Position numbers and translations under genes: made by a program
Shown here: positions 45,431-62,979 of the stretch, in pieces
How positions within the stretch are numbered: the first letter of the stretch is position 1
How the letters are laid out: every line of letters begins with the position of its first letter
IMG/VR virus record: IMGVR_UViG_3300023216_001509
DNA: 62,979 nt
From: a virus
Reading direction: 5' to 3' (one strand)
The notes under the pieces: model-generated
The model's database searches: none
The model's input: the letters and a program-made list of their open reading frames with translations, nothing else
Told to the model about the DNA's origin: nothing

Positions 45431-45435
45431 AGCAG

Positions 45436-46880: not shown

Positions 46881-46931
46881 TGCATCAATCTCCCCTCGCC
46901 CGCTTGTGGGCGAGGGGGTGGTGGCGAACAC
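46880..46931 (-). other. Conserved post-stop hairpin element (copy Y)
   Basis: Minus strand reads GUGUUCGCCACCAC-CCCCUCGCCC-ACAAGC-GGGCGAGGGG-AGAUUGAUGCACAC. Confidence 0.6.
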
Positions 46932-47327: not shown

Positions 47328-47359
47328 TGTGGTCTCCCGAAAAGTGGTTAAGTGCTGAT

Positions 47360-47409
47360 GGTCTCATCAGGCCCGGAACAACCGGACGACCCCCGAAGGG
47401 GTTTCGACC
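47360..47409 (-). ncRNA. Type II hammerhead ribozyme motif (copy B)
   Basis: Minus strand reads GGUC-GAAA-CCCC(UUCG)GGGG-UC / GUCCGG(UUGUU)CCGGGC-CUGAUGA-GACC. It begins at the last base of the upstream stop codon. Confidence 0.8.
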
Positions 47410-47720: not shown

Positions 47721-47762
47721 CGTCTTGGTTTCCTTGGTTGAAGTTGGTGTCCTTGTCCATGT

Positions 47763-47791
47763 AATATATCGGCTGTCTAAAACCACGTCTA
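47763..47791 (-). promoter_or_regulatory. Sigma70-like promoter PL2 (TAGACG-17 nt-TATATT)
   Basis: Shares the TAGACAGCCGATATATTACATGGACAAG core with PL1 and PL3. Confidence 0.6.
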
Positions 47792-47854
47792 TCCCTTTTC
47801 CCTTGATTTTCTTGGGTTTTCGTTTGCCCCCTTATTTTCGTATCCGAATTGAAA

Positions 47855-47883
47855 TTGGTTGGGAAGTGGGGTGGTGTTATAAT
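47855..47883 (+). promoter_or_regulatory. Rightward promoter TTGGTT-17 nt-(TGt)TATAAT
   Basis: Perfect extended -10 (tgttataat) 40 nt upstream of the ATG at 47923. Divergent from PL2. Confidence 0.6.
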
Positions 47884-47922
47884 GGGAGGACAAACCATTC
47901 CCCCAACACAAGGAGCCACCCA

Positions 47923-48471
47923 ATGGCCAAAGAGTTGAAGGCCGAATTGATCTTGGATGTAAAGTGGACGCACACTGACCAGCCAGACAGCGCCATTGAT
48001 CCAGTCAGCGCCCCCAAGATTATTGATTCAAATAAAGCTAGCCTGCGGAGTACGTTGGAGGACGGGACGGACGCGCCGGCGGAGAACGAGGATACCTGCC
48101 GGTTGTCCTACCACGATATCCGAAGGTTGCCAGCAAGTGCTACTGAGGAATTTGATTTATATGGCGGGCTGGTGGACGTGTTCGGCGCGACGATTAACTT
48201 CACCACCGTTCGGTCGTTCTGCATTATTAACCGCAATGAATCATCGAAGGTGAACAACATCTTGGAAATCGGTGGGGCCACGAACGCATGGGCAACGTGG
48301 GCCGGGCATTCATCGGACACAATCAAAATCGGCCCAGGTGGGGCTGTCACGATGTGGAACCCGTCGGCGGCTGGGTTTGTGGTTACTAACTCAACAGGCG
48401 ACAAATTGAAAGTCGTCAACACCGGCGGCGACGACACCCTAGAATATCAAATTACCATCATTGGAGATTAA
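47923..48471 (+). CDS. Hypothetical 182-aa protein
   Basis: ATG at 47923 follows AAGGAG. Beta-rich sequence, no family recognised. Confidence 0.5.
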   Translation: MAKELKAELILDVKWTHTDQPDSAIDPVSAPKIIDSNKASLRSTLEDGTDAPAENEDTCRLSYHDIRRLPASATEEFDLYGGLVDVFGATINFTTVRSFCIINRNESSKVNNILEIGGATNAWATWAGHSSDTIKIGPGGAVTMWNPSAAGFVVTNSTGDKLKVVNTGGDDTLEYQITIIGD

Positions 48472-48501
48472 AGGGATACGGGAACCAGGGAAGGAACAAC
48501 A

Positions 48502-48771
48502 ATGAAAATTCTCAAGATGCTTTCGGTGGCGCTCCTCGTCGCGGCGGTGGTCGTGCTGGGTGTTAGCCAGTTCCGGATAATGAAGGAACTGGACAAGTAC
48601 AAGCGCGGTCTGCTTCATAGCTATCAGCAGTCGTCTGAGACGCAAATGATGATGCAGATGTTTTTCGATATGGCTCCAGCCGAGATGGAACGTATTTCTC
48701 GGCAGGTGATTCGTGAGGAGCTTGGGCGCCCGTCGGAACCGGACGACCACAACATCACGCTCAGTGATTAA
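48502..48771 (+). CDS. Signal-anchored small membrane protein (lysis-cassette candidate)
   Basis: N-terminal MKILKMLSVALLVAAVVVLGV. Confidence 0.45.
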   Translation: MKILKMLSVALLVAAVVVLGVSQFRIMKELDKYKRGLLHSYQQSSETQMMMQMFFDMAPAEMERISRQVIREELGRPSEPDDHNITLSD

Positions 48772-48834
48772 GCTCTAAGCCAGGTTCCCAATTTGTGATA
48801 GAGATATCGAATCACAAATGGAAGGAGGAGAGAA

Positions 48835-49476
48835 ATGGTAACAAGAAGAACATTCATCAACTTGAGTGCGGCTGCTCTGGTGGGGATGGGGTTGGTGCCG
48901 GCGAGTGATGTCGATGGTGGCCTGTTCAAGTGGCGCCCGTGTCCATATTGTGATGTCGAAACTGTTCCTGCTTTGGCTGCTCGGCAGCGGGCGTATTGGG
49001 CTCGGCGGCATTTGAGGTATCACATGGCTGGGCGGGATTTGTACGACATGACCCGGGAGGTCTGGGACAAGGAATTTCGATTGGCATTTGACGCTTGGTC
49101 GGAGGTAACACCACTGACGTTTGAGCAAGTGGGTGTGACTGGTGAATTTGATATCATCATTGCCGTGGGCAACAACCGCCGGCAAGGGTTCGGTCGGGTT
49201 GGTAGGACACTGGCTTGGGCGCAGTTACCCCCATCCAAGAATTATGATGGGGTGCTGCTAACGAAATTTGATTTGGCAGAAAATTGGATACTCCCAGGGA
49301 CGGATGAGTTTGGTGTTGTCCTTCGGTCGGTGGCGTGTCACGAGATTGGCCACTTGCTGGGGTTGAACCATTCACGCGACCCAGAGGCGTTGATGTTTCC
49401 GTATATCAACAACGCACTGGCGCCCAGGGCAGACGACATCCAGAGGATTCAGCAACTTTATGGGGGGCCGATATAG
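48835..49476 (+). CDS. Matrixin-type (M10) zinc metalloprotease with twin-arginine signal peptide
   Basis: MVTRRTFINLSAAALVGMG (Tat motif). VACHEIGHLLGLNHSRDPEALMFPY (HExxHxxGxxH plus Met-turn). DDIQRIQQLYG. Confidence 0.85.
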   Translation: MVTRRTFINLSAAALVGMGLVPASDVDGGLFKWRPCPYCDVETVPALAARQRAYWARRHLRYHMAGRDLYDMTREVWDKEFRLAFDAWSEVTPLTFEQVGVTGEFDIIIAVGNNRRQGFGRVGRTLAWAQLPPSKNYDGVLLTKFDLAENWILPGTDEFGVVLRSVACHEIGHLLGLNHSRDPEALMFPYINNALAPRADDIQRIQQLYGGPI

Positions 49477-49482
49477 GTGGAC

Positions 49483-49914
49483 ATGAAATGGGTGGGTGGG
49501 AAGCTGCTTGGTCTTGTCCTTTCGGTGTTTGTTGATGTGGATACGCTCCAGCCGGTAATCGAAGACAGGTGTGACGTAATTGAAGTCAACCAGGTATTTG
49601 ATCCGACTTGGACTGTCCGCCGTTTCACGCAAGTGATTCTGTATGACTACCGGAACAAGTTTGACCAGGTAAGCGGGGAACGTGAGTGGGATCATTTCAT
49701 TGGAAACTGGCGCATGCTGGAAATGGGGAACGTCCGGTTCTCCCATGTGAAACGGGAGTGGATATTGATTTTCTATGATGACGCGGACGACGTGTTTCGA
49801 ACGGTGAGGGCAACTTCCTACCGTTTCACCAAGGCCAATTTCGACTGCGAAGTGGAGGCACGGAAAAGGTTGCCGGTCAACCAACGAACGCCAATCCTTT
49901 CCCCCATCCCATAG
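49483..49914 (+). CDS. Hypothetical protein
   Basis: Co-directional ORF right after the protease stop. Preferred over the antisense ORF 49372..49884. Confidence 0.35.
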   Translation: MKWVGGKLLGLVLSVFVDVDTLQPVIEDRCDVIEVNQVFDPTWTVRRFTQVILYDYRNKFDQVSGEREWDHFIGNWRMLEMGNVRFSHVKREWILIFYDDADDVFRTVRATSYRFTKANFDCEVEARKRLPVNQRTPILSPIP

Positions 49915-49950
49915 CCAGGTCCATCCAACGTGGAGTGAAAGCGCTCGCTG

Positions 49951-49959
49951 TGTTATATT
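49951..49959 (+). promoter_or_regulatory. Extended -10 element TGtTATATT upstream of terS
   Basis: gctgtgttatatttgtttca. Resembles the 91-110 element. Confidence 0.4.
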
Positions 49960-49994
49960 TGTTTCATGTACGCAATAGCGGGAGGGAGCAAACC

Positions 49995-50783
49995 ATGCCC
50001 AAGAGTGTCTGGAAAGATGAGTTCTACGTCACCTCCTACGAGTTGGCACGAGGGGGAATGTCCGAGCAGAAAATTGCTACCTCGCTGGGGGTGAGCTCTG
50101 CTACTCTAAGGAAATGGAAGACCAACAAACCCGCATTGCGTGATGCTATCGCAAGAGGTCGGGCAGTCGGTGGTGGAGCGAGCGCCACAGCCACGTTCCA
50201 TGAATACATTTTCCAGAAGCTGCCGCCAAACCTTGCCCAGTTGTACAAAGAAATCGAGGCGGTGGAGGCAGAGGAAAACGGGATTGCCCGCATCGAGGCT
50301 ATGCTAGTCAAACAAGGTAAGCGGGCCAGGCAACATCTGTTCCTTCATGCCTTGGTCACATCCAATTTCAACGTCAGCCGTGCCTGTTCCATGGTAAACA
50401 TTTCCCGCAAGACGTTTGAGAGTTGGGTTACGTCCGAACCTGACTTTCAGGAGTTAATGGACGAAATGGATTACCACAAAAAGAACTATTTCGAGTCAGC
50501 CTTGGTTGGGTTGGTAGCAAGGGGAGATAGCAGCGCAACAATTTTCGTGAATAAGACGGTGAACCGTGATCGTGGATACAACGATAAGCTTGACGTGAAT
50601 ATCCAAGGTCACATCGAGCACAACCATGCCCATGCCTTGATCCCAATCAGTGACCTAGAGCTGCCCTTAGAAACACGAACGGCAATCCTCCAGGCTATGA
50701 GGACAAGGAAGTTAGCGTTGGAAAATAACAACGGGAGAAAAGACCTTGAACAGACAGTCGGGGAACGAGCCAGGATTTCGTGA
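49995..50783 (+). CDS. terS: Terminase small subunit candidate (HTH)
   Basis: GGGAGGGAG RBS. GMSEQKIATSLGVSSATLRKWK HTH. Immediately upstream of and overlapping TerL. Confidence 0.55.
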   Translation: MPKSVWKDEFYVTSYELARGGMSEQKIATSLGVSSATLRKWKTNKPALRDAIARGRAVGGGASATATFHEYIFQKLPPNLAQLYKEIEAVEAEENGIARIEAMLVKQGKRARQHLFLHALVTSNFNVSRACSMVNISRKTFESWVTSEPDFQELMDEMDYHKKNYFESALVGLVARGDSSATIFVNKTVNRDRGYNDKLDVNIQGHIEHNHAHALIPISDLELPLETRTAILQAMRTRKLALENNNGRKDLEQTVGERARIS

Positions 50784-52221
50784 GGTAGATTTGGTTCGCA
50801 GTATTTGTGAGGAGTCGTTTTACGAGTTCCTCAAGGAATTCTGGGATGTGATAATCCCTGAAACCCCTGTCTGGAATTGGCACATCGAATATATGTGCAA
50901 CCAACTCCAATCCATGGCGGAACGGGTGTTCGATAACCAGCCCAAACGCTACGACCTGATCGTAAACATTTCACCAGGGAGTACGAAGAGCACCATTGCC
51001 TCGGTTGCCTTCCCTGCTTGGACGTGGACACGTATGCCCACCGCCCGCCACATCTGTGGCAGCCATGCCTTCGACCTTGGGATGGACTTGTCCCGTAGGT
51101 GCCGAGACATACTGCAAGAGACATCCCGCCACGATGGGAAACCGTCCTACCGCGACTGCTGGCCCCACATCCAGCTCAGGGAAGACCAGAACACGAAAGG
51201 CTACTTCGCCAATACGCTCGGCGGGATGCGCAAGAGTGTAACGGTGGGGGGCAAGTCACCAGTCGGGTTTCATGGCCACTTCCTAATTATCGACGACCCC
51301 ATTGATCCGCAGAAGGTACTGTCCGATGCCGAGATCAAGAACGCCAACGAATGGATGAACGAAACCCTGCCCAGCCGTAAAGTCCAGAAAGACATTACCC
51401 CCATGATCCTGATCATGCAGCGCCTCCACCAGAACGACCCCACGGGGAACCGTATGTCCAAGGGGGTGGCAGGGGGCAAGATAAAGCACGTCTGCCTGCC
51501 GGCAGATATGCACGAGGGATACGAGGTGAAGCCAAGGTTCCTCCGCCGCCGATACCAGGATGGCCTGATGGATGCGACACGCATGCCCAGGGAAGTCTTA
51601 ACCGAGGCCCGCGCCCAGCTCGGGGAGTTCGGTTATTCAGGCCAGTATGGTCAACACCCTGTCCCCCTTGGAGGGGCCATGTTTAAGACCGAGCGGATAG
51701 ACATAGACGAAGCACCAGACACTTCACGACTGCGCAAGCGGATACGGTATTGGGACAAGGCAGGGACAGCAGGGGGTGGTGCTTATACGGTGGGTGCGTT
51801 GTTGGGGGTGGACATTGCTGACCGTTATTGGGTGCTCGATATTGTGCGAGGCCAGTGGGACAGCAGCGAGCGTGAAAGGGTGATAGAACAGACAGCGGAA
51901 ATGGATGGTAAGAAGGTGCTCATTGGACTGGAGCAGGAACCAGGGAGTGGTGGCAAGGAATCGGCCGAGTCAACAGTCCGCCGGCTGGCTGGCTACCGCC
52001 TACGAATAGACCGTCCCACTGGAGCCAAGGAATGGCGAGCTGACCCCTTTAGCAGCCAGGTAAACGGACACAATGTATCAGTGAAGAAGGCTGATTGGAA
52101 TGCCCCCTTCCTTGAGGAACTTCGCTTCTTCCCTGCCTCGACTTACAAGGATCAAGTGGACGCGGCCAGTGGGGCGTTCAACATGATCGCCACTATACGG
52201 AAGAAGGTGGGCGCCCTATGA
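50746..52221 (+). CDS. terL: Terminase large subunit
   Basis: ATPase motifs NISPGSTKST and HFLIIDDPID. Nuclease-domain pattern YWDKAGT...GLEQEPGSGGKE...YKDQVDAASGAF. The TTG start is uncertain. Confidence 0.9.
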   Translation: MNRQSGNEPGFREVDLVRSICEESFYEFLKEFWDVIIPETPVWNWHIEYMCNQLQSMAERVFDNQPKRYDLIVNISPGSTKSTIASVAFPAWTWTRMPTARHICGSHAFDLGMDLSRRCRDILQETSRHDGKPSYRDCWPHIQLREDQNTKGYFANTLGGMRKSVTVGGKSPVGFHGHFLIIDDPIDPQKVLSDAEIKNANEWMNETLPSRKVQKDITPMILIMQRLHQNDPTGNRMSKGVAGGKIKHVCLPADMHEGYEVKPRFLRRRYQDGLMDATRMPREVLTEARAQLGEFGYSGQYGQHPVPLGGAMFKTERIDIDEAPDTSRLRKRIRYWDKAGTAGGGAYTVGALLGVDIADRYWVLDIVRGQWDSSERERVIEQTAEMDGKKVLIGLEQEPGSGGKESAESTVRRLAGYRLRIDRPTGAKEWRADPFSSQVNGHNVSVKKADWNAPFLEELRFFPASTYKDQVDAASGAFNMIATIRKKVGAL

Positions 52222-52544
52222 GATACGAAACAGGGCCACATCACCAGCAGCCCATAGGTGACATTCCCGACCATTACGAACAGCTCGCGAGGGTGGTGGA
52301 CAACGTGGACATGGACACCGACTTCCCCGCCTACGTTTACGAAGACCCATTCTTTAGTGACCCGGACTATCCGGTTGCTATGCGATGTATTAACTCTGAA
52401 ACACGTGAGCCATTGCACGTTGTTCTGATCTCGTCGGTCGATGGTGTTTCTTGGTTCTGCTGGATGGTGGAACACAAGCGATTCGAAATCATGGAACTTC
52501 AGATGGATGACGAAGAAACATGGGATGGCGACGAGAGCATATAA
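52218..52544 (+). CDS. Hypothetical acidic protein
   Basis: ATGA overlap with terL. Confidence 0.4.
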   Translation: MRYETGPHHQQPIGDIPDHYEQLARVVDNVDMDTDFPAYVYEDPFFSDPDYPVAMRCINSETREPLHVVLISSVDGVSWFCWMVEHKRFEIMELQMDDEETWDGDESI

Positions 52545-52555
52545 GGTGAACACGC

Positions 52556-53458
52556 ATGCCAGGTACCAAGCAACGGGAACCACGGTTCAACATTAAACGG
52601 ACAGGGAAGAACCTGTTCGATATCACATACGACATCACAGGCAAGCTGTCCAAGTGGGAGGAGTGGATACTGCTGACCAGTGACCGCCATTGGGACAACC
52701 CGCACTCCAACTGGGAACTCCAGAAGGAGCACATGGACGAAGCACTTAGGCGTGGTGCGGCCGTAATCGACTGCGGCGATTTCTTCTGCGCCATGCAGGG
52801 GAAGTGGGACAAAAGAAGTAGCAAGGCAGACCTGCGCCCAGAGCACCAGGTGCCTGATTACTTGGATGCGTTGGTGGGGACAGCGGCCGAGTTCTTCGAA
52901 CCGTATGCCAGCATCATGCCCATTGTCGCAAGGGGCAACCACGAGGCCGCAATTCTGAAGCACCACGAGACATGCCTGATCGAGCGGTTCTGTTCGACCA
53001 TGAAATACAAGACAGGTCACACCATTTTCAACGGTGGTTATTCGGGCTTCTTTCGCATCCGGGTTCGCCAGGACGGGCGCACTCCAGGGCGGATACTGAC
53101 CTGCCATTACAGCCATGGATACGGCGGCGGTGGGCCTGTGACTCGCGGTGTTATCCAGACCAACCGAAGGGCCGTTTATCTGCCCGATGCCGACCTCGTT
53201 GTTTCGGGACACGTTCACGAGCACTGGCAAGTCGAGCTGATGCGGATGCGAGTGGGGCGTCGCGAGATATATCACGACCGGCAACTGCACGTCTGCCTAC
53301 CCACTTACAAGGAGGAGATGGGAACAGGTTTCGAGGGGTGGCATGTTGAGAGTGGAAGGCCACCGAAGCCACAAGGGGCTGCGTGGATGCGGTTGTATTT
53401 TCGGGGCAGCCACGACGCCATTGGAAGGGGGTTGGCGTTCGACATTATCAGGACATAA
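52556..53458 (+). CDS. Calcineurin-like metallophosphoesterase
   Basis: LTSDRHWD, DCGDFF, ARGNHE, VSGHVHEH motifs. Confidence 0.7.
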   Translation: MPGTKQREPRFNIKRTGKNLFDITYDITGKLSKWEEWILLTSDRHWDNPHSNWELQKEHMDEALRRGAAVIDCGDFFCAMQGKWDKRSSKADLRPEHQVPDYLDALVGTAAEFFEPYASIMPIVARGNHEAAILKHHETCLIERFCSTMKYKTGHTIFNGGYSGFFRIRVRQDGRTPGRILTCHYSHGYGGGGPVTRGVIQTNRRAVYLPDADLVVSGHVHEHWQVELMRMRVGRREIYHDRQLHVCLPTYKEEMGTGFEGWHVESGRPPKPQGAAWMRLYFRGSHDAIGRGLAFDIIRT

Positions 53459-53539
53459 CCAGGGAGGCAGGAGGAGATGGTTATTTTGAGGCGGAGATGT
53501 TACCATTCAAGTCTATCCATCTAATGGGAGGGCCGTAAC

Positions 53540-53671
53540 ATGCCGAAGGTTGGAAACAAGCACTTCCCCTATACTGCCAAGGGGGAGCGGGCAGCACGAG
53601 CCCATGCCAAGAAGACAGGGCAACGAGTTGTTATGCCGAAGTCCAGGGCCAGCAAGAAGAAGGGGATGTAA
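53540..53671 (+). CDS. 43-aa very basic peptide (not in the ORF track)
   Basis: GGGAGGG RBS. Translation MPKVGNKHFPYTAKGERAARAHAKKTGQRVVMPKSRASKKKGM. Confidence 0.3.
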   Translation: MPKVGNKHFPYTAKGERAARAHAKKTGQRVVMPKSRASKKKGM

Positions 53672-53673
53672 CC

Positions 53674-55215
53674 ATGCCAACAGATACATCGAAGGGGAAT
53701 GGGAAACCAACGCTCAACGTCCGTGGTGTGATGAACGCTACCGACTCGTTGATGCGGTCGCAGTTCCTGACCAAGCTACTCGACCCACGCCGGGACATAG
53801 ACGACGAGTGCGGTTATCCAAAGGAAATAAGCGCCCAGCAATATCGCTACCTCTACGACCGTGAGGGTATCGCCCAGCGGGTGGTGGCCATGATGCCGAC
53901 CGAGTGCTGGGCGTCTGACCCCCATGTCCGCGAAAACGAAGATGCGGATTTAACCGAGTTCGAGGAGACATGGGAACTGCTTCAAAAGGAAATGAACCTC
54001 TTCCACTTCCTAGCCAGGGCCGATGAGATGTCGGGCATTGGTGCCTTCGGAATTCTGTTGCTTGGCATAGGCGATGGGCAGGACATGGGGCAACCCGTTG
54101 AGGGCATTAGCGAGACAGGGGAGAAGGTGGGCAACGCCCAACACGAGCTGCTTTACTGCCGCGTATTTGATGAGTCGTTGGTCGAGGTTGCCACGTTCGA
54201 AACGGACGAGGGCAATCCCAGGTTCGGCCAGCCCTTAACCTACAACGTCACCTTCGCCGACCCTCGCAACGAGGACACCGTCGGCCTCACCTCCCCCACG
54301 GGAACACAAAAGACGGTTCACTGGACACGGTGCCTCCACCTAGCGGACAACCGCAAGTCGAGTGAGATATTCGGTGTCCCCAGAATGCGCCCAGTTTACA
54401 ATCGCCTCTACGACCTGCGGAAGTTGTTGGGTGGCTCGGCTGAGATGTTTTGGAAGGGGGCGTTCCCAGGGATTGCCTTCGAGGTGAACCCGGACTTGGG
54501 GGACGTGGAATTGGACGCAGCTGCGCTGCGTACAGAGTTCGATGCATACTCGAACGGGCTTCAACGCTACCTCGCCCTCGCCGGAGTGTCAGCTAAGTCC
54601 CTTGCCCCTCAAGTCGCAAATCCCGAGGCTCACATCAACAGCCAGATCAAAGCGATAGCAATCACGCTGTCCATTCCTTGGCGAATCTTTGTTGGTAGTG
54701 AGCAGGCACAGCTCGCCAGTTCCCAGGACAAACATACTTGGAACACAAGGCTGGCCCACCGCCAGCACAAGTATGTCGGGCCGTTGGTGGTTCGCCCGTT
54801 CATAGACAGGCTCATCACGTTCGGCATTCTACCCGAGGTCGAAGAATACTTCGTGGAGTGGGAAGACCTTGCCTCCCCGTCAGACGAGGACAAGGCCATT
54901 GTCGCGGCCAAGGTGGTTGAGGCGATTGCCAAGTATGTTCAGGCTGGCGTGGATACGCTTGTTCCACCGATGGAATTCTTCACGATCATAATGGGCATGC
55001 CGGCCGAACAGGCGGAGGCCATTATTGAGGCAGCGGACGAACAGGCGGACGAGTTGGAACTTGAGGAGGAGGATGTGGAAATGCCTGTGCCACCACTCCC
55101 AGGTGAACCATTACCAGGTGAACCATTACCAGGCGAACCCGTTCCACCACCCATCCCACTCCCAGAGGATGAGGAGGACGAGGACGAAGACGAGGAGGAG
55201 GAGGACGATGAATAA
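53674..55215 (+). CDS. Portal protein (DUF1073-like) with PLPGE repeats and an acidic tail
   Basis: 513 aa, located between the terminase and the MuF-like gene. The N-terminal region resembles DUF1073 portals. C-terminus PLPGEPLPGEPLPGEP...EDEEDEDEDEEEEDDE. Confidence 0.7.
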   Translation: MPTDTSKGNGKPTLNVRGVMNATDSLMRSQFLTKLLDPRRDIDDECGYPKEISAQQYRYLYDREGIAQRVVAMMPTECWASDPHVRENEDADLTEFEETWELLQKEMNLFHFLARADEMSGIGAFGILLLGIGDGQDMGQPVEGISETGEKVGNAQHELLYCRVFDESLVEVATFETDEGNPRFGQPLTYNVTFADPRNEDTVGLTSPTGTQKTVHWTRCLHLADNRKSSEIFGVPRMRPVYNRLYDLRKLLGGSAEMFWKGAFPGIAFEVNPDLGDVELDAAALRTEFDAYSNGLQRYLALAGVSAKSLAPQVANPEAHINSQIKAIAITLSIPWRIFVGSEQAQLASSQDKHTWNTRLAHRQHKYVGPLVVRPFIDRLITFGILPEVEEYFVEWEDLASPSDEDKAIVAAKVVEAIAKYVQAGVDTLVPPMEFFTIIMGMPAEQAEAIIEAADEQADELELEEEDVEMPVPPLPGEPLPGEPLPGEPVPPPIPLPEDEEDEDEDEEEEDDE

Positions 55216-55828
55216 AGTCACAAGCAGCCCAGCCAGTGCAGCAGGCAAGTCACCTGCCTCCGTTATCACAGGCCCAGGAGGGGGCGGCATCACGACGTGG
55301 TCATCCCGGATTGTGGCCAGCGGGGATGATGGCTATTGGGTTGTTGGACAGAGCTTCCACAACAGTGCCACCACCGCTCGGGTCGGATATGAATTCATGA
55401 TGTTCACGCCCATCCATTCGTTCTTCCGCTTCCAGAATGTTACGGTTCCAAACGCCACCACAATTTCAACGGCGACGTTGACGCTGGTGGTTGGCGCTGC
55501 TGCCTCCACTGCATTCAACATGAGAATGAAGGGGGAGGACGTAGACGACTCAGTTGCCTATGCCAATTTGACGGCGGCGAATGACGCAGCAAATACCGGG
55601 GCGAGCGTGGTGTGGCGAGGTGCAGCGTCTTGGGCAACTTCCGACGTGGAGGTCAGCCCAGATATTAAAACGGTGATTCAGGAAATTGTGAATCGGGGTG
55701 GTTGGGCTTCGGGCAATGACTTGACGTTGCGGCTGCATTACGAGGATATCGCCACCGAGGAAGATTACGAGTTCAAAACTTTTGATGATTCGGCGGGCGT
55801 GTCTGCCTTGCTGACCATCCAATACTAA
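55208..55828 (+). CDS. Hypothetical virion-module protein
   Basis: The ATG at 55208 overlaps the portal stop (ATGAATAA). Beta-rich. Confidence 0.45.
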   Translation: MNKVTSSPASAAGKSPASVITGPGGGGITTWSSRIVASGDDGYWVVGQSFHNSATTARVGYEFMMFTPIHSFFRFQNVTVPNATTISTATLTLVVGAAASTAFNMRMKGEDVDDSVAYANLTAANDAANTGASVVWRGAASWATSDVEVSPDIKTVIQEIVNRGGWASGNDLTLRLHYEDIATEEDYEFKTFDDSAGVSALLTIQY

Positions 55829-55839
55829 AGGAGAGAGAA

Positions 55840-56148
55840 ATGGCAGACAAGAGTTTAGTCAAAGTCCTAACAGCAGCTGCGAGTGGTTCCTCCTCGACCT
55901 TGGATTGGCCAGGTGGGGTTGGCCAGATGGCGGTCGCTGGGACGTTCGATGATTGCACGGTGAAACTTCAGATGAGCCCCGACGGCGCGGTCACTTGGAT
56001 TGACGTTGGTGGGGACGCATCCGTAACAGAGGCGGGCGTGGTCAATTTTGACTTGCGCAGTTGTGAAGTTCGTTTAACGATTGCCTCTGCCGGCGGTTCC
56101 ACTGCCATTGATGGCTGGGTCACACGCACCACGGGCCTTTTCGCATAG
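55840..56148 (+). CDS. Hypothetical 102-aa protein
   Basis: RBS AAGGAGAGAG. Confidence 0.45.
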   Translation: MADKSLVKVLTAAASGSSSTLDWPGGVGQMAVAGTFDDCTVKLQMSPDGAVTWIDVGGDASVTEAGVVNFDLRSCEVRLTIASAGGSTAIDGWVTRTTGLFA

Positions 56149-56156
56149 GAACCAGC

Positions 56157-56495
56157 ATGGGCATTCATCGGACAAGATTTGCTTGTCCCGTTTGTTTAAC
56201 TCACCAGGAAACTCAAAGGGGGATGTGCGTGGAATGTGGGAACCTGATTGGTTGCACCGCGGTTGGCCATGACGAGTCCCGCCCATTCTACGGGTGTCAA
56301 GATAATGGTGTTCTCACAGCGGAGATATTGAAACTGAGCAGGGAACGCAACAACCTTCTGTCGGCATTATCCTTGATTGCTAAACATGAACCCGACCCCC
56401 TTATTGCCTACGACTTTCGGGCGTCACAATTGATCAGGGAACTTAAACAGGTAGCGTTGAACGTGTTGAAGGATTATGACGACGACATATCTTAA
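56157..56495 (+). CDS. Zn-ribbon protein (hypothetical)
   Basis: CPVC...CVECG. Confidence 0.4.
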   Translation: MGIHRTRFACPVCLTHQETQRGMCVECGNLIGCTAVGHDESRPFYGCQDNGVLTAEILKLSRERNNLLSALSLIAKHEPDPLIAYDFRASQLIRELKQVALNVLKDYDDDIS

Positions 56496-59484
56496 ACCAG
56501 GCCTCACGCATAACCGCGAGTTCGCTCGGGCGCCACGAGAGTACCCAGCAACGGCGAGGGGCAATCCACTTCAACGTGATCCCACGCGCACCACCATGTT
56601 GCGCAAGAAGTTCATGGCGGATATGAAGAGAAGGTTGCTCGCACTTCGCCGCGCCATCACTTACATCGTGATTGAATTGGATGTCTTCCAACTCAAGGGC
56701 AACACGGGCGGCAATCCGTTTACCGCCAACGCCCCCTTCCGGTTCAGTTCTTACGGGCTACCAGACACCGGACTTGATGCAACCCTTGCCATTCCTCCCG
56801 CTGATTTCCTGGCCGACCCGAGTGCCATTTTCACTGCGGCGTCACCGTCCAGACAATTAACCGCATATCAGATATGGTTCAAGGAACAGGTGGACGCGGG
56901 GCTGCTGCAAGTGGCACCAGGTTTCGAGGATGCGCCGTGGACTTCCCCTTATGTTGAGAGTGCTTACAAGAAGGGCGTGGTGCGTGGCTACAACGATACG
57001 AAAGGACTTGCCGGCCAGGCTGGGCCGTTTGGACAGGGCGCCCAGTCCCAGTTCCTCGAGTCCGCTTTTAGTGGGCCGATAGGAACCCGTCAACTTCAGC
57101 TGCTTGGGACACGGGCGTTCCAACAACTGAAGGGCGTGTCGGCTGCGATGGAACAACAGATGAGCCGGACGCTGGCAGACGGATTAGCGCATGGATTGGG
57201 GCCGCGGGAAATTGCTAGGAACCTCAACAACACGGTGACAGAGTTGGGCGCCAAGCGGTCGCTTGTGATAGCGCGGACTGAAATCATTAACTCGTATGCC
57301 GAGGGCCAACTTGATTCATTCGATATGTTGAACGTGGAAGAAGTTGGGGTCATGGCCGAATGGTCGACTGCCGGCGACGATCGGGTCTGCGACTTGTGCA
57401 ATGATTTGCTGGGCGTGGTGCTGACGGTGAAGGAGGCCCGAGGGTTGCTGCCACGTCATCCGAACTGCCGTTGTGCTTGGTTGCCGGCGATGGTGGGTGA
57501 GAAAGCTGCCGGCAGGAAGACCACGCAAACCCAGATCAAATCCTCCATCAACAAATCGGCCAAGGGGCAGAAGGGGTGGGCAGGGGCAGACAAGACAATC
57601 GCCAAGTCCAGAACCAAGACACCAGGTTTTGACGCCAAGAGCATACTTGGAAAACAAGTAGCGCAACGGGCTCTTGCTGGTACGGCTGGTGAGGCGGCGG
57701 CTGCTGACATTGCCTTCGCACCGGCGGCTGGATTATGGGAGCACAATCCCACGGCTGTCCTTCGTTGGATGGGGACAGAGGGGTTCACGGTTGAAGAAGC
57801 GGCAGCAGTGATGGAGGCAACAGGAACCAACGTCGCCAAGGCCACAATCAAAACCCAACTCAACGCAGGGATCAAAGGGACACGGGGAGCGATTGCCGCA
57901 TTGACCGAGGAACAGGGGGCGGCGTTGAAGTTCTTGCGGTCAGGTGCTGTCCCAGAGTTCACCCAAGCGAAAACCGGAATCGTGAGGTGGATGGGGACAC
58001 AAGATTTGACCTTCGCTGAGGCGAAGGCTGTGCTGGGCGATGCGGGAATAGAGATGGCGGATTCGACCATCCGGGCGCAGCTTCGTGCTGGGAAAATTGG
58101 AACCCGTGGGGCGCCTGCCGAACTTACGCAAACTCAACAGAAGTGGGTGCTGTCCAAACGTGCCAAGCCAGGGCAGGTCAGTAAGCCAGGTGCTGGCGTT
58201 CCGGCGCAACCAACCCCTGCCGGCGCACCGACAACAACGCCCACGAAGGCACCCACGAAGGCGAAGGCTGACGCTGGGCCGACGGGAATGGATGTGGCTG
58301 GGGTGGATGCAAGCGACCCGTTCGTTCAGGAAATATGGGCGGCGGTTGGGGACGAGGGAATTACTTCGGCGGCACATGCGAAGAAGGTTGGCAAGTTAAT
58401 GGACAAGGAAATTAAAAGTCATCCCAAGGTCAAGAAGTTGCAGAAGGAAATCGACAAGGCAAACAAACGCCTCGTCGCAATCGAAAAGGAAATGGATGGC
58501 CTCTCTTATGGCCACCCCAAGTTCAACGAGTTGAGGGAGGAGTTTAAGGAACTTACCCAGAAGATGAATGGGACAGCCTATGCTAATGAGCAGGGCCGTT
58601 TCGGATTGATAGGTAACTACTCCGACGCCTATGCGGAAGCACTTATTGAAACGACTGGTCGTGTCCGGTCAGTGGGTGGCAAATTGAATTATTCTTCTGG
58701 CACCACACCGGAAATGAAGCAGGTTGTGAATGGGGCATGCGAGGCCTTCCCGACTGATTGGGTTGATCTCATAAATGAAAATTGCACGATGAACGTGTCG
58801 GTTGTTGATCGGGGTTACTTCGGCCCGCGGTCGAACATTCGAAGTTCTGTTGAACCATCTGGCGGCACTCGGCGTCCGGGTGTTACGGGCAGGCACAATA
58901 AGCGATCGAACCTTGCTGAGCGTGGGGAAAAGTGGCACCCCAGCGTCAGCGATGCCGAATCCATGAGGAAAACAGGTTGTCATTTGAAACTTAGCGATCG
59001 CCCAGGTGTGAAGGTTCGCGATTCCGTGGTGAAGAAGAATAACGGGAAATATGATTACAAGGGAAAAGTTTACAACCACAGAGTAGCAACTCACGAAACA
59101 ATTCATGGATTGGAATACAGCGCGGGAAACAAATTGACGCAGCTTGAATATGAATTCCTGTCGTCGAGATATGGTGTTGGTGAACTCCCTGTTGTATTCG
59201 AAGACGCGGGTGTGAGGCGGATTGTGTTGGAAGACAAATTTCACCAAGACTATTCCGGGAAAATATATTTGAGGTCAAGCAATTCGGCCGATGGTTGGAT
59301 TGCAGTGGAGGAGGCAACAACTGGGGACGAACTGCTGGCGATGTTTGAGGCCTCGGAAAGCGCGTCTGCGGAAGTGGCGACAATGGGGGTGGAGGATATT
59401 TTGCACGGTGGCCCGTCAGGTGCTCGGTTGATGGACGACGACGATTATCGAGAGTTCATCCTTGGGTTGTTTGGAGGCTTTTGA
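56476..59484 (+). CDS. MuF/SPP1-gp7-type minor head protein extended into a polyvalent protein (two LRWMG-type domains plus a C-terminal HExxH domain)
   Basis: MuF core IARTEIINSYAEGQ...DDRVCDLCN...HPNCRCAW. Also AVLRWMGTEGF and GIVRWMGTQDL repeats, a Lys/Pro/Thr linker, and ATHETIHGLEY. Confidence 0.8.
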   Translation: MTTTYLKPGLTHNREFARAPREYPATARGNPLQRDPTRTTMLRKKFMADMKRRLLALRRAITYIVIELDVFQLKGNTGGNPFTANAPFRFSSYGLPDTGLDATLAIPPADFLADPSAIFTAASPSRQLTAYQIWFKEQVDAGLLQVAPGFEDAPWTSPYVESAYKKGVVRGYNDTKGLAGQAGPFGQGAQSQFLESAFSGPIGTRQLQLLGTRAFQQLKGVSAAMEQQMSRTLADGLAHGLGPREIARNLNNTVTELGAKRSLVIARTEIINSYAEGQLDSFDMLNVEEVGVMAEWSTAGDDRVCDLCNDLLGVVLTVKEARGLLPRHPNCRCAWLPAMVGEKAAGRKTTQTQIKSSINKSAKGQKGWAGADKTIAKSRTKTPGFDAKSILGKQVAQRALAGTAGEAAAADIAFAPAAGLWEHNPTAVLRWMGTEGFTVEEAAAVMEATGTNVAKATIKTQLNAGIKGTRGAIAALTEEQGAALKFLRSGAVPEFTQAKTGIVRWMGTQDLTFAEAKAVLGDAGIEMADSTIRAQLRAGKIGTRGAPAELTQTQQKWVLSKRAKPGQVSKPGAGVPAQPTPAGAPTTTPTKAPTKAKADAGPTGMDVAGVDASDPFVQEIWAAVGDEGITSAAHAKKVGKLMDKEIKSHPKVKKLQKEIDKANKRLVAIEKEMDGLSYGHPKFNELREEFKELTQKMNGTAYANEQGRFGLIGNYSDAYAEALIETTGRVRSVGGKLNYSSGTTPEMKQVVNGACEAFPTDWVDLINENCTMNVSVVDRGYFGPRSNIRSSVEPSGGTRRPGVTGRHNKRSNLAERGEKWHPSVSDAESMRKTGCHLKLSDRPGVKVRDSVVKKNNGKYDYKGKVYNHRVATHETIHGLEYSAGNKLTQLEYEFLSSRYGVGELPVVFEDAGVRRIVLEDKFHQDYSGKIYLRSSNSADGWIAVEEATTGDELLAMFEASESASAEVATMGVEDILHGGPSGARLMDDDDYREFILGLFGGF

Positions 59485-59485
59485 T

Positions 59486-59800
59486 ATGATGAAATGGAAA
59501 GTGATTTACCGTGGGGAGGAGTGGGATGTCCGCTGGGACGAGGACAGCACTCCACGCCTTCAGGCGTTCCCTACAATCCTCGATCACTTGGGATGGATGG
59601 TTGAACTCCGGACAGGGGAAGACAGGGAGGGGCTGTTCTATTTTCGGAATGATATGTTTGTGCCAGGGAAGGAAATCCTGGACACGGGTGCCGCCATTTT
59701 CTCATTCATGAAGGTGGCGTTCGGAGTTGGCAATGTGAAATTCATAGAGGGAGAAGTTCCCGATTTTGGGCCGGAGTTGCCTGAGTGGGCAATTCCATAA
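59486..59800 (+). CDS. Hypothetical 104-aa protein
   Basis: ATG lies 2 nt after the upstream stop. Confidence 0.4.
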   Translation: MMKWKVIYRGEEWDVRWDEDSTPRLQAFPTILDHLGWMVELRTGEDREGLFYFRNDMFVPGKEILDTGAAIFSFMKVAFGVGNVKFIEGEVPDFGPELPEWAIP

Positions 59801-59816
59801 TCAAGGAGAAACGGCT

Positions 59817-60050
59817 ATGGTTGATTTCAAAAAGATGTACGAGGAGCTGAAGGTGGAGGAGGGCAAGCTAGAGGCGGGCGGCAAGTCCGCAGGGATGGTT
59901 GGCACGGCAGTGAATGTCCTGCGCATTTGTTGGCAATGTGATTGCTCCGACTGGCGCGAGGTGGAGGCAGCAGAAAGGAAGAAGAAACCTGCTGCGAAGA
60001 AAAAGAAAACAGAGGGGTCGCCTACCTCGCCGTCAGGCGTAGGTTCGTGA
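59817..60050 (+). CDS. Hypothetical 77-aa protein with a Lys-rich tail
   Basis: AAGGAGAAACGGCT-ATG. Confidence 0.4.
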   Translation: MVDFKKMYEELKVEEGKLEAGGKSAGMVGTAVNVLRICWQCDCSDWREVEAAERKKKPAAKKKKTEGSPTSPSGVGS

Positions 60051-60172
60051 CCAAGGGGCGCTCCCTTCCTTGGGTGAACTCCCGTTCGCTGGTTAGCTTT
60101 CACCAGTCGAACTCTCAAGGAAGGTGACGCGTCCGCGGGTCGGCAATGGTGGCTGGGGTGGGCGCCGACCTG

Positions 60173-60550
60173 CTATCGACCGGCGCAGACCGGGCCGATG
60201 CCGGTCTCGATGCTCAGAGGGTTTGTGAGCGGCCGGTTACAGACGCGGCACCTGCCCTCGAACATATAGTCGACCCCATGCTGGTCGGCGTAATGGTCAG
60301 TCCGAATCAGCATGTCGGCATACTTGGCGAACAAGGGCGTTGCCTTCTTCCGCCAGACATTGATCGACCCGTCGTCGGTCACAAATCCGAAGCCCCGATA
60401 ATCCTCCCCGTCGCACAGCAACGAAACCACCCGCTGCCCGGGCGCGAAGTTTGACTCCTCGTGTTGCGTCCGGACTTGGAAGGTTCGGTGGCCTCCCGTG
60501 GTAGGGTTCCGAAGGGTGATGGTTCCGTTGTGGGTTGCGAGCTTGAACAT
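60173..60550 (-). CDS. DUF6011-like protein
   Basis: C-terminal GRCRVCNRPLTNPLSIETGIGPVC. Conserved leader upstream. Confidence 0.55.
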   Translation of the reverse strand: MFKLATHNGTITLRNPTTGGHRTFQVRTQHEESNFAPGQRVVSLLCDGEDYRGFGFVTDDGSINVWRKKATPLFAKYADMLIRTDHYADQHGVDYMFEGRCRVCNRPLTNPLSIETGIGPVCAGR

Positions 60551-60572
60551 TTGGTCTCCTTGGTTGGTGGTG
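60551..60572 (-). promoter_or_regulatory. Conserved CA-rich leader/SD cassette
   Basis: Minus strand reads CACCACCAACCAAGGAGACCAA-ATG. It fills the gap from the upstream stop. Confidence 0.7.
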
Positions 60573-60989
60573 TTACGAAAGGTATTCCATGACGACGATT
60601 ACTTTTCCCAAACGCTTCGCTTCACGAATCGCTTCATTTGTTTCGGCCATGCAACGATACGACTCGCCATGCCAACTGTGAAAGTGGGCATCATTGTCAG
60701 CCACCCATTTCCGGATGACAACGCCTTCCGCTTCCCAATTATCAGGACACGGTTCGCCGGTCTGCTTTTCAACCTCGTCCAGGATTTCGGTCACGGTGGT
60801 GAGTATTACACGCCACGGGTTGGCAGATTCTTCACAGCCTGCCTCGAGGCCAAGTTCCTTGACCAGCTCGAGGAGGTGGTTGGCCACAACAGGGCGGGCC
60901 GCGAGGGTTCGCCATTCCAGTTTCATGTAGCGGGCAGCTGCCTTCAGTGTTCCGAGGTCTTTCGAATTGAAGTTGAATTTGACGGTCAT
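60573..60989 (-). CDS. Hypothetical 138-aa early protein
   Basis: Conserved leader upstream. Confidence 0.5.
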   Translation of the reverse strand: MTVKFNFNSKDLGTLKAAARYMKLEWRTLAARPVVANHLLELVKELGLEAGCEESANPWRVILTTVTEILDEVEKQTGEPCPDNWEAEGVVIRKWVADNDAHFHSWHGESYRCMAETNEAIREAKRLGKVIVVMEYLS

Positions 60990-61016
60990 GGTGGTCTCCT
61001 TGGTTGGTGGTGGTGT
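60990..61016 (-). promoter_or_regulatory. Conserved CA-rich leader/SD cassette
   Basis: Minus strand reads ACACCACCACCAACCAAGGAGACCACC-ATG. Confidence 0.7.
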
Positions 61017-61406
61017 TTACAGACTGAAGAAACTGTCGATGGTTGCTTGGGCAGCGACTTGGGCAACGATGCTGTCCGCCTTTGTCCAAGTCACGTCGCC
61101 GTCCAGCGCCTCTTCCTTTTCCATTGCATCCCAAGTTTTGAACAGGATGTTGGTGCGCTTGCGGTGGGTTCGGTTATCAATTTTCTTGCCATTGATGTGC
61201 TTGATAATTCCCTCGGCGGTTTGAATTTCAAACACTCCCGAGCGGTGGGAACCACCGTAACCGACGGCGCTGATTAGCTCGTCGATGGTGGTCTCGGTGT
61301 CCAGCACCTTGGTTCCACAAGTGACGGTGAAATTTTCAGGGGCCAGTCGGTTTGATTCTGCCTTGCGGAAGAAGTCGATTTCTTGTGGTTTGAATTTGAG
61401 TGTCAT
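61017..61406 (-). CDS. Hypothetical 129-aa early protein
   Basis: RBS TAGGAGACCAAC-ATG. Confidence 0.5.
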   Translation of the reverse strand: MTLKFKPQEIDFFRKAESNRLAPENFTVTCGTKVLDTETTIDELISAVGYGGSHRSGVFEIQTAEGIIKHINGKKIDNRTHRKRTNILFKTWDAMEKEEALDGDVTWTKADSIVAQVAAQATIDSFFSL

Positions 61407-61415
61407 GTTGGTCTC

Positions 61416-61560: not shown

Positions 61561-61589
61561 AATATATCGGCTGTATAAAACCCTGTCCA
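61561..61589 (-). promoter_or_regulatory. Sigma70-like promoter PL3 (TGGACA-17 nt-TATATT)
   Basis: About 70 nt (61551-61617) is nearly identical to 39771-39840, including the upstream palindrome cctgatattttcagg. Confidence 0.7.
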
Positions 61590-61686
61590 CTCCTATTCCC
61601 TGATATTTTCAGGAAATCCTTTAGGGGGCAGGACGCTACCTGACGCACCTGAACCACCTGACGGGCTCATGCCCAACCTGACCATC

Positions 61687-61736
61687 CCGATCCGATCCGA
61701 TCCGATCCGATCCGATCTGATCCGATTCGTACCCCA
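61687..61736 (+). repeat. (CCGAT)n pentanucleotide array (8 perfect units plus 2 more), about nine GATC sites; inverted partner of 36-65
   Basis: Direct reading. Confidence 0.95.
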
Positions 61737-61745
61737 ACCTGACCA

Positions 61746-62225
61746 GCGAGATTTCCAGGTGGCTTCTCGGCAATCTCGTCCTACGAAACAAGGGGAATCG
61801 TTACAATCTCGCCCAGGTAAAACATTCCAGCGAGATTTCCAGGTGGGTTCTCGTCAATCTCGTCCTACAAAACAAGGGGAATCGTTAGAATCTCGCCCAG
61901 GTAAAACACCACCAATCTCCAGGCCGTTTCCCAGGTGTTTTCCAGCGAGATTTCCAGGTGGCTTCTCGGTGATCTCGTCCTACGAAACAAGGGGATCGGT
62001 ACAATCTCGAACGCCCGAAACCACCCCCATTTCCCCAGCTGAAAATCTCCAGTCAAAATCCCCAACCGAGATTCTCGGTGGGCTCTCGGTGATCTCGTCC
62101 TACGAAACAAGGGGATCGGTACAATCTCGCTGCACCTGAAACCACCGTTGATTTCCAGCAGCGAGATTCTCGGTGGGCTCTCGGTGATCTCGTCCTATAA
62201 AACAAGGGGATCGGTACAATCTCTC
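61746..62225 (+). repeat. Five dispersed ~65-bp direct repeats with internal dyad GCGAGAT...ATCTCG...ATCTCGC
   Basis: Units start at 61746, 61830, 61945, 62066 and 62161. A degenerate sixth lies near 62262-62318, and a truncated hybrid copy at 70-100. Confidence 0.9.
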
Positions 62226-62937
62226 CCAGGTTAATTCCCAGGCTGGTTCCCAGGTAAACGTGATCACGATTCCCAGGTGGCTTCTCGGCAATCTCCACCT
62301 ATGAAATAAGGGGTTTCCCAGGTTAATTCCCAGGCTGGTTCCCAGGCTAATCCCAGGGGCCAGGCCAATTCAATTTCCAGGGGGCGGTTCCAGGCTGGTT
62401 TCCAGGGGGCAGTTCCAGGCTGGTTTCCAGGTGGTGGTTCCAGGGCGCTCAACCTAGAAAACAAGGGTTTCCCAGGTTGGTTCCCAGGCTAGGCACCAGG
62501 CTGTTCCCAGGTGTTTCAAAATAAGTTTCCAGGGGGTGGGTTTCCAGGTCACATTCCAGGTCACATTCCAGGTCACATTCCAGGTGATTCTCCAGGTGAT
62601 TCTCCAGGTGATTCTCCAGGTTGTTTCCACTATGAAATAGGGGGTTTCCAGGTCACATTCCAGGTGATTCTCCAGGCTGTTTCCCAGGTGATTCTCCAGG
62701 TCACATTCCAGGTGATTCTCCAGGCCGTTTCCCAGGCTGTTTCCCAGGCTGTTTCCCAGGTGTTTCCCAGGCTGCCTCCCAGGTGTTTCCCTGCGTGTCC
62801 CCTACGTGTCCATGCGTGTCCCTGCGTTTCCCAGGTGTTCGCAGTTGTTGCCCTGCGTGTCCCCTACGTGTCCCTACGTGTCCCAGGTGTCTGCAGGGGT
62901 TTCCCTACGTGTCCCTACGTGTCCCTACGTGTCCCAG
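62222..62937 (+). repeat. Dense same-strand array of (T)TCCCAGG / TTCCAGG motifs, including 12-bp tandem repeats
   Basis: By-eye count of about 43 CCAGG and no CCTGG. ggtcacattcca x3 and ggtgattctcca x3 at 62548-62619. gtccctacgt decamers at 62790-62935. Confidence 0.9.
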
Positions 62938-62979
62938 GTGTTTGCAGGGGGTTTCCCAGGTGGCGGGCAAATCGGATCG
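62938..62979. repeat. Terminal overlap, copy 2 (identical to 1-42)
   Basis: See the feature at 1-42. Confidence 0.9.

Follow-up and report, generated by a model that had tools for sequence, protein, structure and literature searches.

A phased CCAGG array that may be the local extreme of a genome-wide one-strand rule in a viral genome

Phage T7 carries 36 EcoP15I sites, one orientation throughout, and is resistant, and intact sites retain and sequester Type III restriction enzymes (PMC3874151). Phages have also been reported to show strand-biased depletion of Type III and MANTIS sites (bioRxiv 10.64898/2026.09.23.753747). Here we examined IMG/VR virus record IMGVR_UViG_3300023216_001509, a stretch of 62,979 nucleotides referred to throughout as the window, whose terminal intergenic region holds a dense array of the pentamer CCAGG and which, over its entire length, contains 208 copies of CCAGG but only 5 of its complement CCTGG. 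A first-pass annotation, made from the letters alone, had drawn attention to the array and listed candidate roles without choosing among them; the genome-wide polarity had escaped it.

The closest described systems each resemble this locus in part. T7 and EcoP15I share with it a short asymmetric site that has adenine on one strand and occurs in many copies all pointing one way, so that the inverted pairs on which cleavage depends are absent (PMC3874151); however, all T7 genes lie on one strand, whereas the rule described here crosses two gene-strand switches and is enforced down to the amino-acid level, forward sites are moderately favoured, the word forms a phased array of about 45 copies, and the cognate enzyme is not known. 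In Pseudomonas phages, the loss of MANTIS and Type III sites from one strand is similar in that it counters defences that prefer inverted pairs (bioRxiv 10.64898/2026.09.23.753747), but it is a statistical bias of a panel at 6-bp sites, in contrast to the near-absolute polarity (207:5 across this genome, 128:1 and 80:0 in two relatives) of a 5-6-bp word that also builds a dense array. The FtsK-orienting polar sequences (KOPS) and Chi are likewise short, over-represented, oriented words read by a directional machine; their skew tracks replichores and is not absolute, and reverse Chi is neutral, whereas here the reverse word is purged and close relatives do without the word. Iteron arrays and centromeres (lambda ori, P1 incA, R1 parC) also consist of direct repeats of about one helical turn that bind protein cooperatively, but they have far fewer copies, lie beside the gene of their binding protein and, at origins, include an AT-rich element, none of which applies here. 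The P1 pac site is a cluster of short repeated words carrying a methylation site that governs packaging cleavage, but it comprises seven hexamers rather than about 45 units, is strand-symmetric and belongs to no genome-wide orientation rule. One-strand site bias as a form of restriction evasion is already known. What is new is its near-absolute degree across opposite gene orientations with enforcement at the amino-acid level, its gain and loss within one clade, the moderate favouring of forward sites and the dense phased array of the same word; we found no earlier description of CCAGG polarity in the literature.

The core of the repeat region is a single feature:

62222..62791 (+): main CCAGG array, about 38 TTYCCAGGY copies, mostly at exact 12-bp spacing, in several sub-families (motif count and Tandem Repeats Finder, TRF)

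The annotation had put about 43 copies of CCAGG near the end of the window. Indeed, we counted 41 complete copies in 62222-62937 and 43 from 62226 to the window end, with one further copy at 79. The array had also been said to continue past the point of circularisation, which holds for the site at 79 but not for the one at 19, a duplicate of site 62956, since positions 1-43 of the window repeat 62937-62979. CCTGG is absent both from 62222-62937 and from the whole circularised intergenic region (61407..137, 1,667 bp; CCAGG:CCTGG = 51:0), so the description of the array as fully strand-polarised stands. Local composition predicts 0.7 CCAGG for 62222-62937, and first-order Markov simulations of this interval gave a mean of 5 and a maximum of 13. 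A density above background, as the annotation anticipated, is easily borne out (57 CCAGG per kb in the array interval versus 2.55 per kb in the remaining genome, a 22-fold difference; Poisson P = 2.5e-40), yet this comparison is blind to the genome-wide rule.

The exact 12-bp tandem sub-arrays reported in the first pass were recovered, including by TRF (for example 62542-62585, period 12, 100% match), and in the intergenic region 25 of the 50 inter-site distances are exactly 12 bp and 31 are 11-13 bp. A position matrix gave (T)TTYCCAGG(T/C) as the array context, in agreement with the (T)TTCC(C)AGG(T/C)-type context first proposed. The spacers vary among sub-families around an invariant CCAGG core. 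Array sites have an extended consensus, G..GTTTYCCAGGYG..TT.C, that sites in the genome body are without, so that the two share only the core; TTYCCAGGYG occurs 13 times, always within the repeat region. All 51 intergenic sites are CCAGGB (B being any base but A), whereas CCAGGA makes up 19% of forward body sites (chance about 2e-5). Core conservation, together with the 12-bp phasing and the extended consensus, supports the general idea of a protein-binding field suggested in the annotation.

Three further assemblies from different samples (L158, L160 and L161) carry the array at 98.9-99.9% identity, one of which (L161) spans the junction between window end and window start and differs by repeat indels of 8 bp and 20 bp, one adding a CCAGG. 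Because these assemblies reproduce it, the array is genuine and not an assembly artefact. In the parts of the polar relatives recovered, no array was found. The open reading frames (ORFs) that read through the repeats, dismissed as artefacts in the first pass, had no Pfam match; the repeat region showed no DNA similarity to cultured phages, and an Rfam search of the entire window found no family. Scanning viral contigs for four CCAGG at 12-bp spacing returned at least 120 matches, none with a relative and nearly all non-polar outside the repeat, which we set aside as unrelated 12-bp coding repeats; a stricter pattern, three copies of TTCCCAGG, matched two giant contigs, also unrelated.

The orientation of the array is that of the whole genome. 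Outside the array, the genome body (138..61406) contains 156 CCAGG on the + strand and 5 CCTGG, and CCAGG is by far the most skewed 5-mer (z = 11.9). When the sixth base is considered, the forward:reverse counts are 62:0 for CCAGGT, 45:0 for CCAGGG and 20:0 for CCAGGC, that is, 127:0 for CCAGGB in the body. The + strand carries the genes of 138 to 19.6 kb and of 47.6 to 59.8 kb, and the - strand those of 19.7 to 47.3 kb and of 60.2 to 61.4 kb. The polarity ignores these switches, with CCAGG:CCTGG ratios per gene block of 57:0 (+), 57:3 (-) and 42:2 (+). Because the orientation is the same in blocks of either gene strand, selection must act on the DNA strand and not on mRNA.

The coding regions bear the marks of this selection. 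In + strand genes, the Pro codon before GG is CCA 38 times, CCC 9 times, CCG 5 times and CCT never; Leu CTG is used in the C_G context in 2 of 86 cases, compared to 25% elsewhere; and Trp follows an xCC codon in 0 of 817 instances, with about 15 expected. This pattern is mirrored in the - strand genes. Against a synonymous-codon shuffle that kept each protein and the per-gene codon usage, the reverse word was depleted in two gene sets (z = -6.3 and -5.3). In all, 5 reverse copies were observed where about 60-75 were expected. Together, these results show that the reverse orientation has been purged through synonymous and even amino-acid choices, under strong selection on the DNA strand. The five reverse sites that are tolerated are:

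28532..28536 (-): reverse site, CCAGGAATTA on the - strand
37549..37553 (-): reverse site, CCAGGATTTG on the - strand
45248..45252 (-): reverse site, CCAGGATTTG on the - strand
56808..56812 (-): reverse site, CCAGGAAATC on the - strand
59677..59681 (-): reverse site, CCAGGATTTC on the - strand

All five have CCAGGAWW on the - strand, and the only exception in a polar relative (L154) is of this form too. Since every exception is of the CCAGGA type, selection acts on CCAGGB. The flanks of body sites are not conserved outside this word, and the sites are spaced a little more evenly than random (coefficient of variation (CV) 0.83, p = 0.015; largest gap 1548 bp, p = 0.03). CCAGG carries one A and its complement CCTGG none. 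The same genome also displays classic two-strand restriction avoidance: GGWCC is nearly absent from 138-61406 (1 GGACC and 2 GGTCC, where expectation is about 71 and 75; z = -5 to -7 against the shuffle), GATC is at about half of expectation and CCSGG is reduced. Very-short-patch repair was rejected as a specific cause of CCWGG enrichment, as CTAG depletion and CTTGG/CCAAG enrichment were present in every set, polar or not.

We found no close cultured phage, the best match to the large terminase protein TerL being 38% identical, but metagenomic relatives show how the polarity is distributed. A Tara Oceans genome (L154 and L241) has 128 CCAGG versus 1 in reverse over 39.5 of its 60.8 kb, and a second polar genome (L153 and L244) has 80:0 over 37.5 of 60.8 kb. 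In both, the orientation relative to the gene map is that of the window and is maintained across genes on both strands. A sister lineage (L121, L123 and L245) is weakly polar, with 69 forward and 28 reverse CCAGGB compared to 31 and 28 CCAGGA. Neutral relatives (L201, L163 and L164) have a DnaB 81% identical to that of the window, equal to the Tara phage, and eleven loci avoid CCWGG on both strands, often together with GATC and GGWCC. DnaB phylogeny places the polar lineages with the weakly polar ones in one small clade next to the neutral group, and the polar, weakly polar, neutral and avoid-both states all fall inside a single clade of 70-85% DnaB identity. Relatives whose TerS, DnaB and SNF2 proteins are 78-80% identical show no polarity, which indicates that the core phage machinery does not need the word. 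No array was found in the approximately 62-65% of the polar relatives' genomes recovered, including the equivalent locus, which in both consists only of a promoter region of about 200 bp. Comparison of the regions available for it revealed no gene restricted to polar genomes.

Whether the forward word is favoured or merely allowed is less uniform. In + strand genes of the window there are 91 forward sites versus 53 from the shuffle null, with the CCWGG total of the window near its composition expectation. In the low-GC polar relatives, forward sites reach 3-4 times the composition expectation and exceed the shuffle null with z = 7.6, 10.1 and 4.3. Per-frame synonymous tests in the Tara genome gave Gln CAG in the C_G context at 67% versus 26% elsewhere, and NCC before AGG at 74% versus 30%. 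Synonymous choices that create CCAGG had odds ratios of 4-6.6 in polar genomes and 0.6-1.4 in neutral controls; the second polar genome was similar to the Tara genome and the effect in the window was weaker. Flipping of reverse sites was rejected as the sole source of this enrichment: only about 11% of the relatives' reverse sites are flipped in the window, and synonymous choices other than flips also create sites. We conclude that the forward word is favoured moderately and unevenly, in contrast to the strong and general purge of the reverse one.

Only a process that senses direction yields a one-strand pattern, which a symmetric reader of CCWGG (Dcm, EcoRII or DISARM class 2) cannot. The best documented of such processes is restriction that depends on two unmodified, inverted sites, with Type III enzymes as the classic case; Type ISP and the recently described MANTIS system have a like preference. 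The reading we favour, tentatively and at a little less than an even chance, is that the array is the local extreme of the genome-wide one-strand CCAGGB rule, the rule being imposed by a host nuclease that acts on inverted pairs and the array being a field where this reader is bound or titrated. The removal of reverse CCAGGB by selection on the DNA strand, irrespective of gene strand, is its first step and is directly seen. The next, for which the balance tips slightly in favour, is that a host nuclease of Type III, Type ISP or MANTIS-like character reads the asymmetric word and would cut only where two unmodified copies stand inverted to each other; a genome with direct repeats alone would then be immune, by analogy with T7 and EcoP15I. 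Host-imposed pressure fits because the word is short and asymmetric with its sole adenine on one strand, because the relatives are patchy and the same genome avoids other sites on two strands, and because relatives without 7-deazaguanine genes avoid more sites. The non-polar relatives with 78-80% identical TerS, DnaB and SNF2 argue against the phage's own machinery as the cause. The last step is rather unlikely on its own terms: the phased array of about 45 TTYCCAGGY would be a cis-acting binding field for the same reader, which we take to bind there because the array has only CCAGGB sites and an invariant core. Its likeliest role would be titration, in which harmless same-orientation sites hold enzyme complexes and the ratio of free enzyme to sites drops, and the same logic would account for the moderate favouring of forward sites across polar genomes. 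Other ties between array and rule are its place beside orphan accessory genes and the repeat indels that differ between samples. The annotation's notion of a decoy for a host nuclease comes near to this explanation as regards a nuclease reading this word; its version with a nuclease that recognises symmetric CCWGG is unsupported.

Several points weigh against this reading. No CCAGG-specific Type III, ISP or MANTIS-like enzyme was found in the searchable literature. An array is needless for pure evasion, and none is seen in about 62-65% of the genome of either fully polar relative, the equivalent locus included. Strict enzymes of the Type III or ISP kind already spare a one-direction genome, which makes it uncertain what titration would gain. 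In the window, - strand genes show no forward enrichment over the shuffle (54 observed, 54.5 expected), and a preference for C-CUG-G is the baseline of the clade, so that part of the forward enrichment is clade codon context. The single orientation in all polar lineages fits common descent but also an orientation tied to phage biology. Finally, the extended consensus of the array, lacking in body sites, means that the reader of the array may differ from the agent of the purge. A related proposition is that a clade of siphophage-like genomes of roughly 60 kb positively keeps CCAGGB as an orientation code throughout the genome, favouring forward copies and forbidding reverse ones, with the phased 45-copy array loading or titrating a directional reader; this we consider possible but doubtful.

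In its intrinsic form, such a code would make CCAGGB a polar guide word for a directional machine of phage or host (a translocase, a replisome component or a packaging motor), comparable with KOPS and FtsK: forward copies would help, reverse copies would misdirect or block, and the array would be a loading or start site, either pac-like or a one-way fork barrier. This would combine the reverse purge with moderate positive selection for forward sites, and agrees with the shared orientation of every polar lineage relative to its gene map, the evenness of site spacing, the CCAGGB class of the array sites and a phasing and extended consensus of the kind expected from cooperative protein binding. 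It is nevertheless unlikely given the neutral close relatives with 78-81% identical TerS, DnaB and SNF2 and a 61% identical primase, others without any CCWGG, the lack of a polar-specific gene in the regions compared, polar relatives that have no array in the 62-65% of their genomes examined, and window - strand genes with no forward enrichment. The array might instead have little to do with the rule, being a set of iterons or operators for a phage DNA-binding protein (at an origin, in control of divergent promoters or in packaging) in which CCAGG is incidental and only its orientation is forced by the rule. That TTYCCAGGYG is confined to the repeat region, that body sites share the core alone, and that the same region lies between divergent transcription units and holds other one-directional repeat families, promoter-like TACAAT hexamers and dyads all speak for such an array, as does the O-like initiator gene about 20 kb away, which has no iterons or repeat cluster and so places the origin elsewhere. 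Yet an arbitrary 9-12-bp unit would hold the one polar pentamer with an estimated chance of only about 1-2%, all 51 sites also avoid the tolerated CCAGGA class, the roughly 45 copies far exceed usual iteron or operator numbers, the relatives' locus is only about 200 bp, no partition genes were found and there is no AT-rich unwinding element (no 100-bp window of the repeat region falls below 43% GC; GC 0.43-0.61). We therefore consider this quite unlikely. The same observations bear on the roles proposed in the first pass. For a replication site there is no positive evidence, with no AT-rich unwinding element and no iterons near the initiator gene; nor is there any for a partition site, as no partition protein families were present among the scanned ORFs of the window. 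Packaging through TerS likewise has no positive evidence, the array lying 11-12 kb from terS (49935-50783) and a relative with a 78% identical TerS being non-polar.

Three further explanations invoke enzymes that read CCWGG-like words or free DNA ends. The T5 genome has single-strand interruptions, and nicked genomes such as this follow a one-strand rule. By the same token, a nickase of host or phage might act at CCAGGB, with all sites on one strand sparing the genome double-strand breaks; the phage does encode a strand-displacing-type PolA, an SNase-like nuclease and a PD-(D/E)XK nuclease. Enzymes of the MvaI/BcnI type, which act as monomers on CCWGG/CCSGG, read such pseudo-palindromes asymmetrically, and one mutation turns BcnI into a strand-specific nickase (PMC3089477). 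This is very unlikely here, as far-apart nicks on opposite strands are not breaks and a near-absolute purge is not obviously needed, no polar-specific candidate nickase was found, and about 45 nick sites at 12-bp spacing would locally shred one strand. If CCAGG were instead the Chi word of the host's RecBCD or AddAB, forward copies and the terminal array could shield the entering end or the tails of rolling circles from degradation. Over-representation and orientation are typical of Chi words, which may be 5-mers (AGCGG in B. subtilis), and no recognisable Gam-like inhibitor is present among the annotated phage genes; but reverse Chi is neutral, so that about 60-75 reverse copies would be expected instead of 5, the purge extends to the amino-acid level, - strand genes of the window have no forward enrichment and close relatives avoid the word altogether, all of which makes Chi highly improbable. 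Chi, iteron-origin and pac readings are weaker rivals. Least credible of all is symmetric CCWGG biology, the frame in which the annotation had set the array: a Dcm-type signal, an EcoRII-type target or decoy, or a P1-pac-like site gated by the methylation of the phage's C5-cytosine methylase. Dcm and EcoRII do read CCWGG, its avoidance on both strands by many relatives attests to CCWGG-specific Type II pressure in the clade, and the self-mark of DISARM class 2 is CCWGG methylation. However, a bias of 208:5 that is independent of gene orientation excludes a symmetric reader. The methylase ORF named in the first pass exists, but its link to the array is unsupported, as only the N-terminal, catalytic half of the family is matched and the polar relative L162 lacks a homologue. 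DISARM class 2 was considered separately and rejected, its CCWGG methylation being symmetric with no orientation dependence described.

The resistance of T7 to EcoP15I has one-strand site bias as its textbook explanation, but T7 transcribes one strand, so composition effects can never be fully separated from selection there; the present case would show far more cleanly, from nature, the shaping of phage genomes by orientation-dependent nucleases. It predicts an undescribed host system with CCAGGB specificity, which is directly testable. Should the array titrate the enzyme, it would be an anti-restriction device made of sequence only and the first DNA-sequence decoy against orientation-dependent restriction; should it not, it would mark a directional phage process not yet described, and a reader that proved to be a phage or host translocase would make the word a phage counterpart of KOPS. 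The approach, which combines strand-exclusive words that ignore gene orientation, codon-shuffle nulls and relatives, could be applied to metagenomic phage collections to deduce host defence specificities.

The array is one of several repeat families in a 1.67-kb divergent intergenic region, with - strand genes (60173-61406) on one side and + strand structural genes from 138 on the other:

60173..61406 (-): three small orphan genes adjoining the array (125 aa with DUF6011, 138 aa and 129 aa)
61561..61589 (-): sigma-70-like promoter, TGGACA-17-TATATT, toward the small - strand genes; left edge of the divergent intergenic region
61632..61743 (+): ACCTGAC direct repeats, four copies, at 61638, 61656, 61676 and 61737
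61687..61726 (no strand): (GATCC)8 microsatellite, which with the inverted (GGATC)5 at 37-61 flanks the repeat region
61743..62222 (+): 5-6 repeat units of 84-120 bp, each a CGAGAT...ATCTCG dyad around CCAGG, a CCTAYGAAAYAAGGGG box and a TACAAT hexamer
62788..62979 (+): GTGTCCCTRCG repeats of 10-11 bp (6 CCTACGTG and 8 GTGTCCC, all +) with interspersed TTCCCAGGTG units
62937-62979: copy of 1-43, the assembly overlap of a circular or permuted genome
1..137 (+): intergenic continuation, with (GGATC)5 at 37-61, the last TTCCCAGGTG at 76-85 and TACAAT at 95-100
138 (+): ATG of the first + strand gene, after a ribosome-binding site, where the structural genes begin

All repeat families run in one direction except the dyads and the two bracketing microsatellites. 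In two of the 84-120-bp units the CCAGG of the dyad is swapped for CTCGG, and the CCTAYGAAAYAAGGGG box occurs in 7 copies, all +, confined to 61743-62222. A related box is present as a single copy, in the opposite orientation, in the short intergenic region of the relatives (L153 about 9160-9185; L154 about 9138-9160). Between them (GATCC)8 and (GGATC)5 account for 12 of the 19 non-duplicated GATC sites of the repeat region. An invertible segment between the two microsatellites was considered and rejected, with no recombinase encoded and a single orientation in all assemblies. In one assembly, L160 (reverse-complemented), the terminal positions 4193-4262 copy window 61841-61910 as a 70-nt fold-back, which is probably a chimera that arose when the repeats were assembled. 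The three orphan genes are missing from the equivalent slot in all relatives examined. Because the relatives have no array at the locus and the neighbouring genes are orphans, the array occupies a variable, fast-evolving accessory slot. As candidate binders of the array the orphan proteins gave no family, defence or anti-defence match, and the one distant homologue has no array near it.

Elsewhere the genome has a cytosine methylase ORF and a complete set of genes for 7-deazaguanine DNA modification:

34030..34827 (-): C5-cytosine methylase ORF, 265 aa, matching the N-terminal half of the family only; considered and not linked to the array
30059-34033 (-): complete 7-deazaguanine DNA-modification set, namely
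30059-31207 (-): DpdA-like transglycosylase
31212-32186 (-): FolE
32171-32965 (-): QueC
32886-33584 (-): QueE
33581-34033 (-): QueD

A 199-aa ORF whose product has an SNase-like endonuclease domain overlaps the start of the methylase (window 34030-35335, -), and the methylase ORF may be truncated, or be an unusual fusion or frameshift. Among the relatives, those without DpdA/Que genes (L165, L166, L168, L169, L174 and L180) have CCWGG, GGWCC and often GATC avoided or depleted, and those with them (L201, L163, L173 and L175) are neutral, a distribution that fits modification as protection from restriction. On the CCAGG-bearing strand of the Tara genome (L154 and L241), CCTG is depleted (20 versus 127 expected) and CAGG:CCTG is 190:20, so in this lineage polarity reaches weakly beyond the pentamer. 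The weakly polar sister lineage (L121, L123 and L245) has more CCWGG, in either orientation, than the codon shuffle predicts (z = 2.3-4.6). A CsrA homologue of 66-67 aa is encoded in the replication block of both low-GC polar relatives (L241 13747-13950; L244 538-738), and none was seen in the window. The window encodes a sigma-factor-like protein (Sigma70_r2) at 44829-45377 (-), which suggests phage-specific promoters that would be missed by a sigma-70 scan. A second calcineurin-like phosphoesterase lies at 52556-53458 (+), between the large terminase and portal genes, in addition to an Mre11-like one at 19735-20658. The tail module ends (15066-18377, +) with a glycosyltransferase family 2 (GT2) protein (643 aa, with DUF6171), a class I S-adenosylmethionine (SAM)-dependent methyltransferase (Methyltransf_24) and a second GT2, an arrangement conserved in L245.

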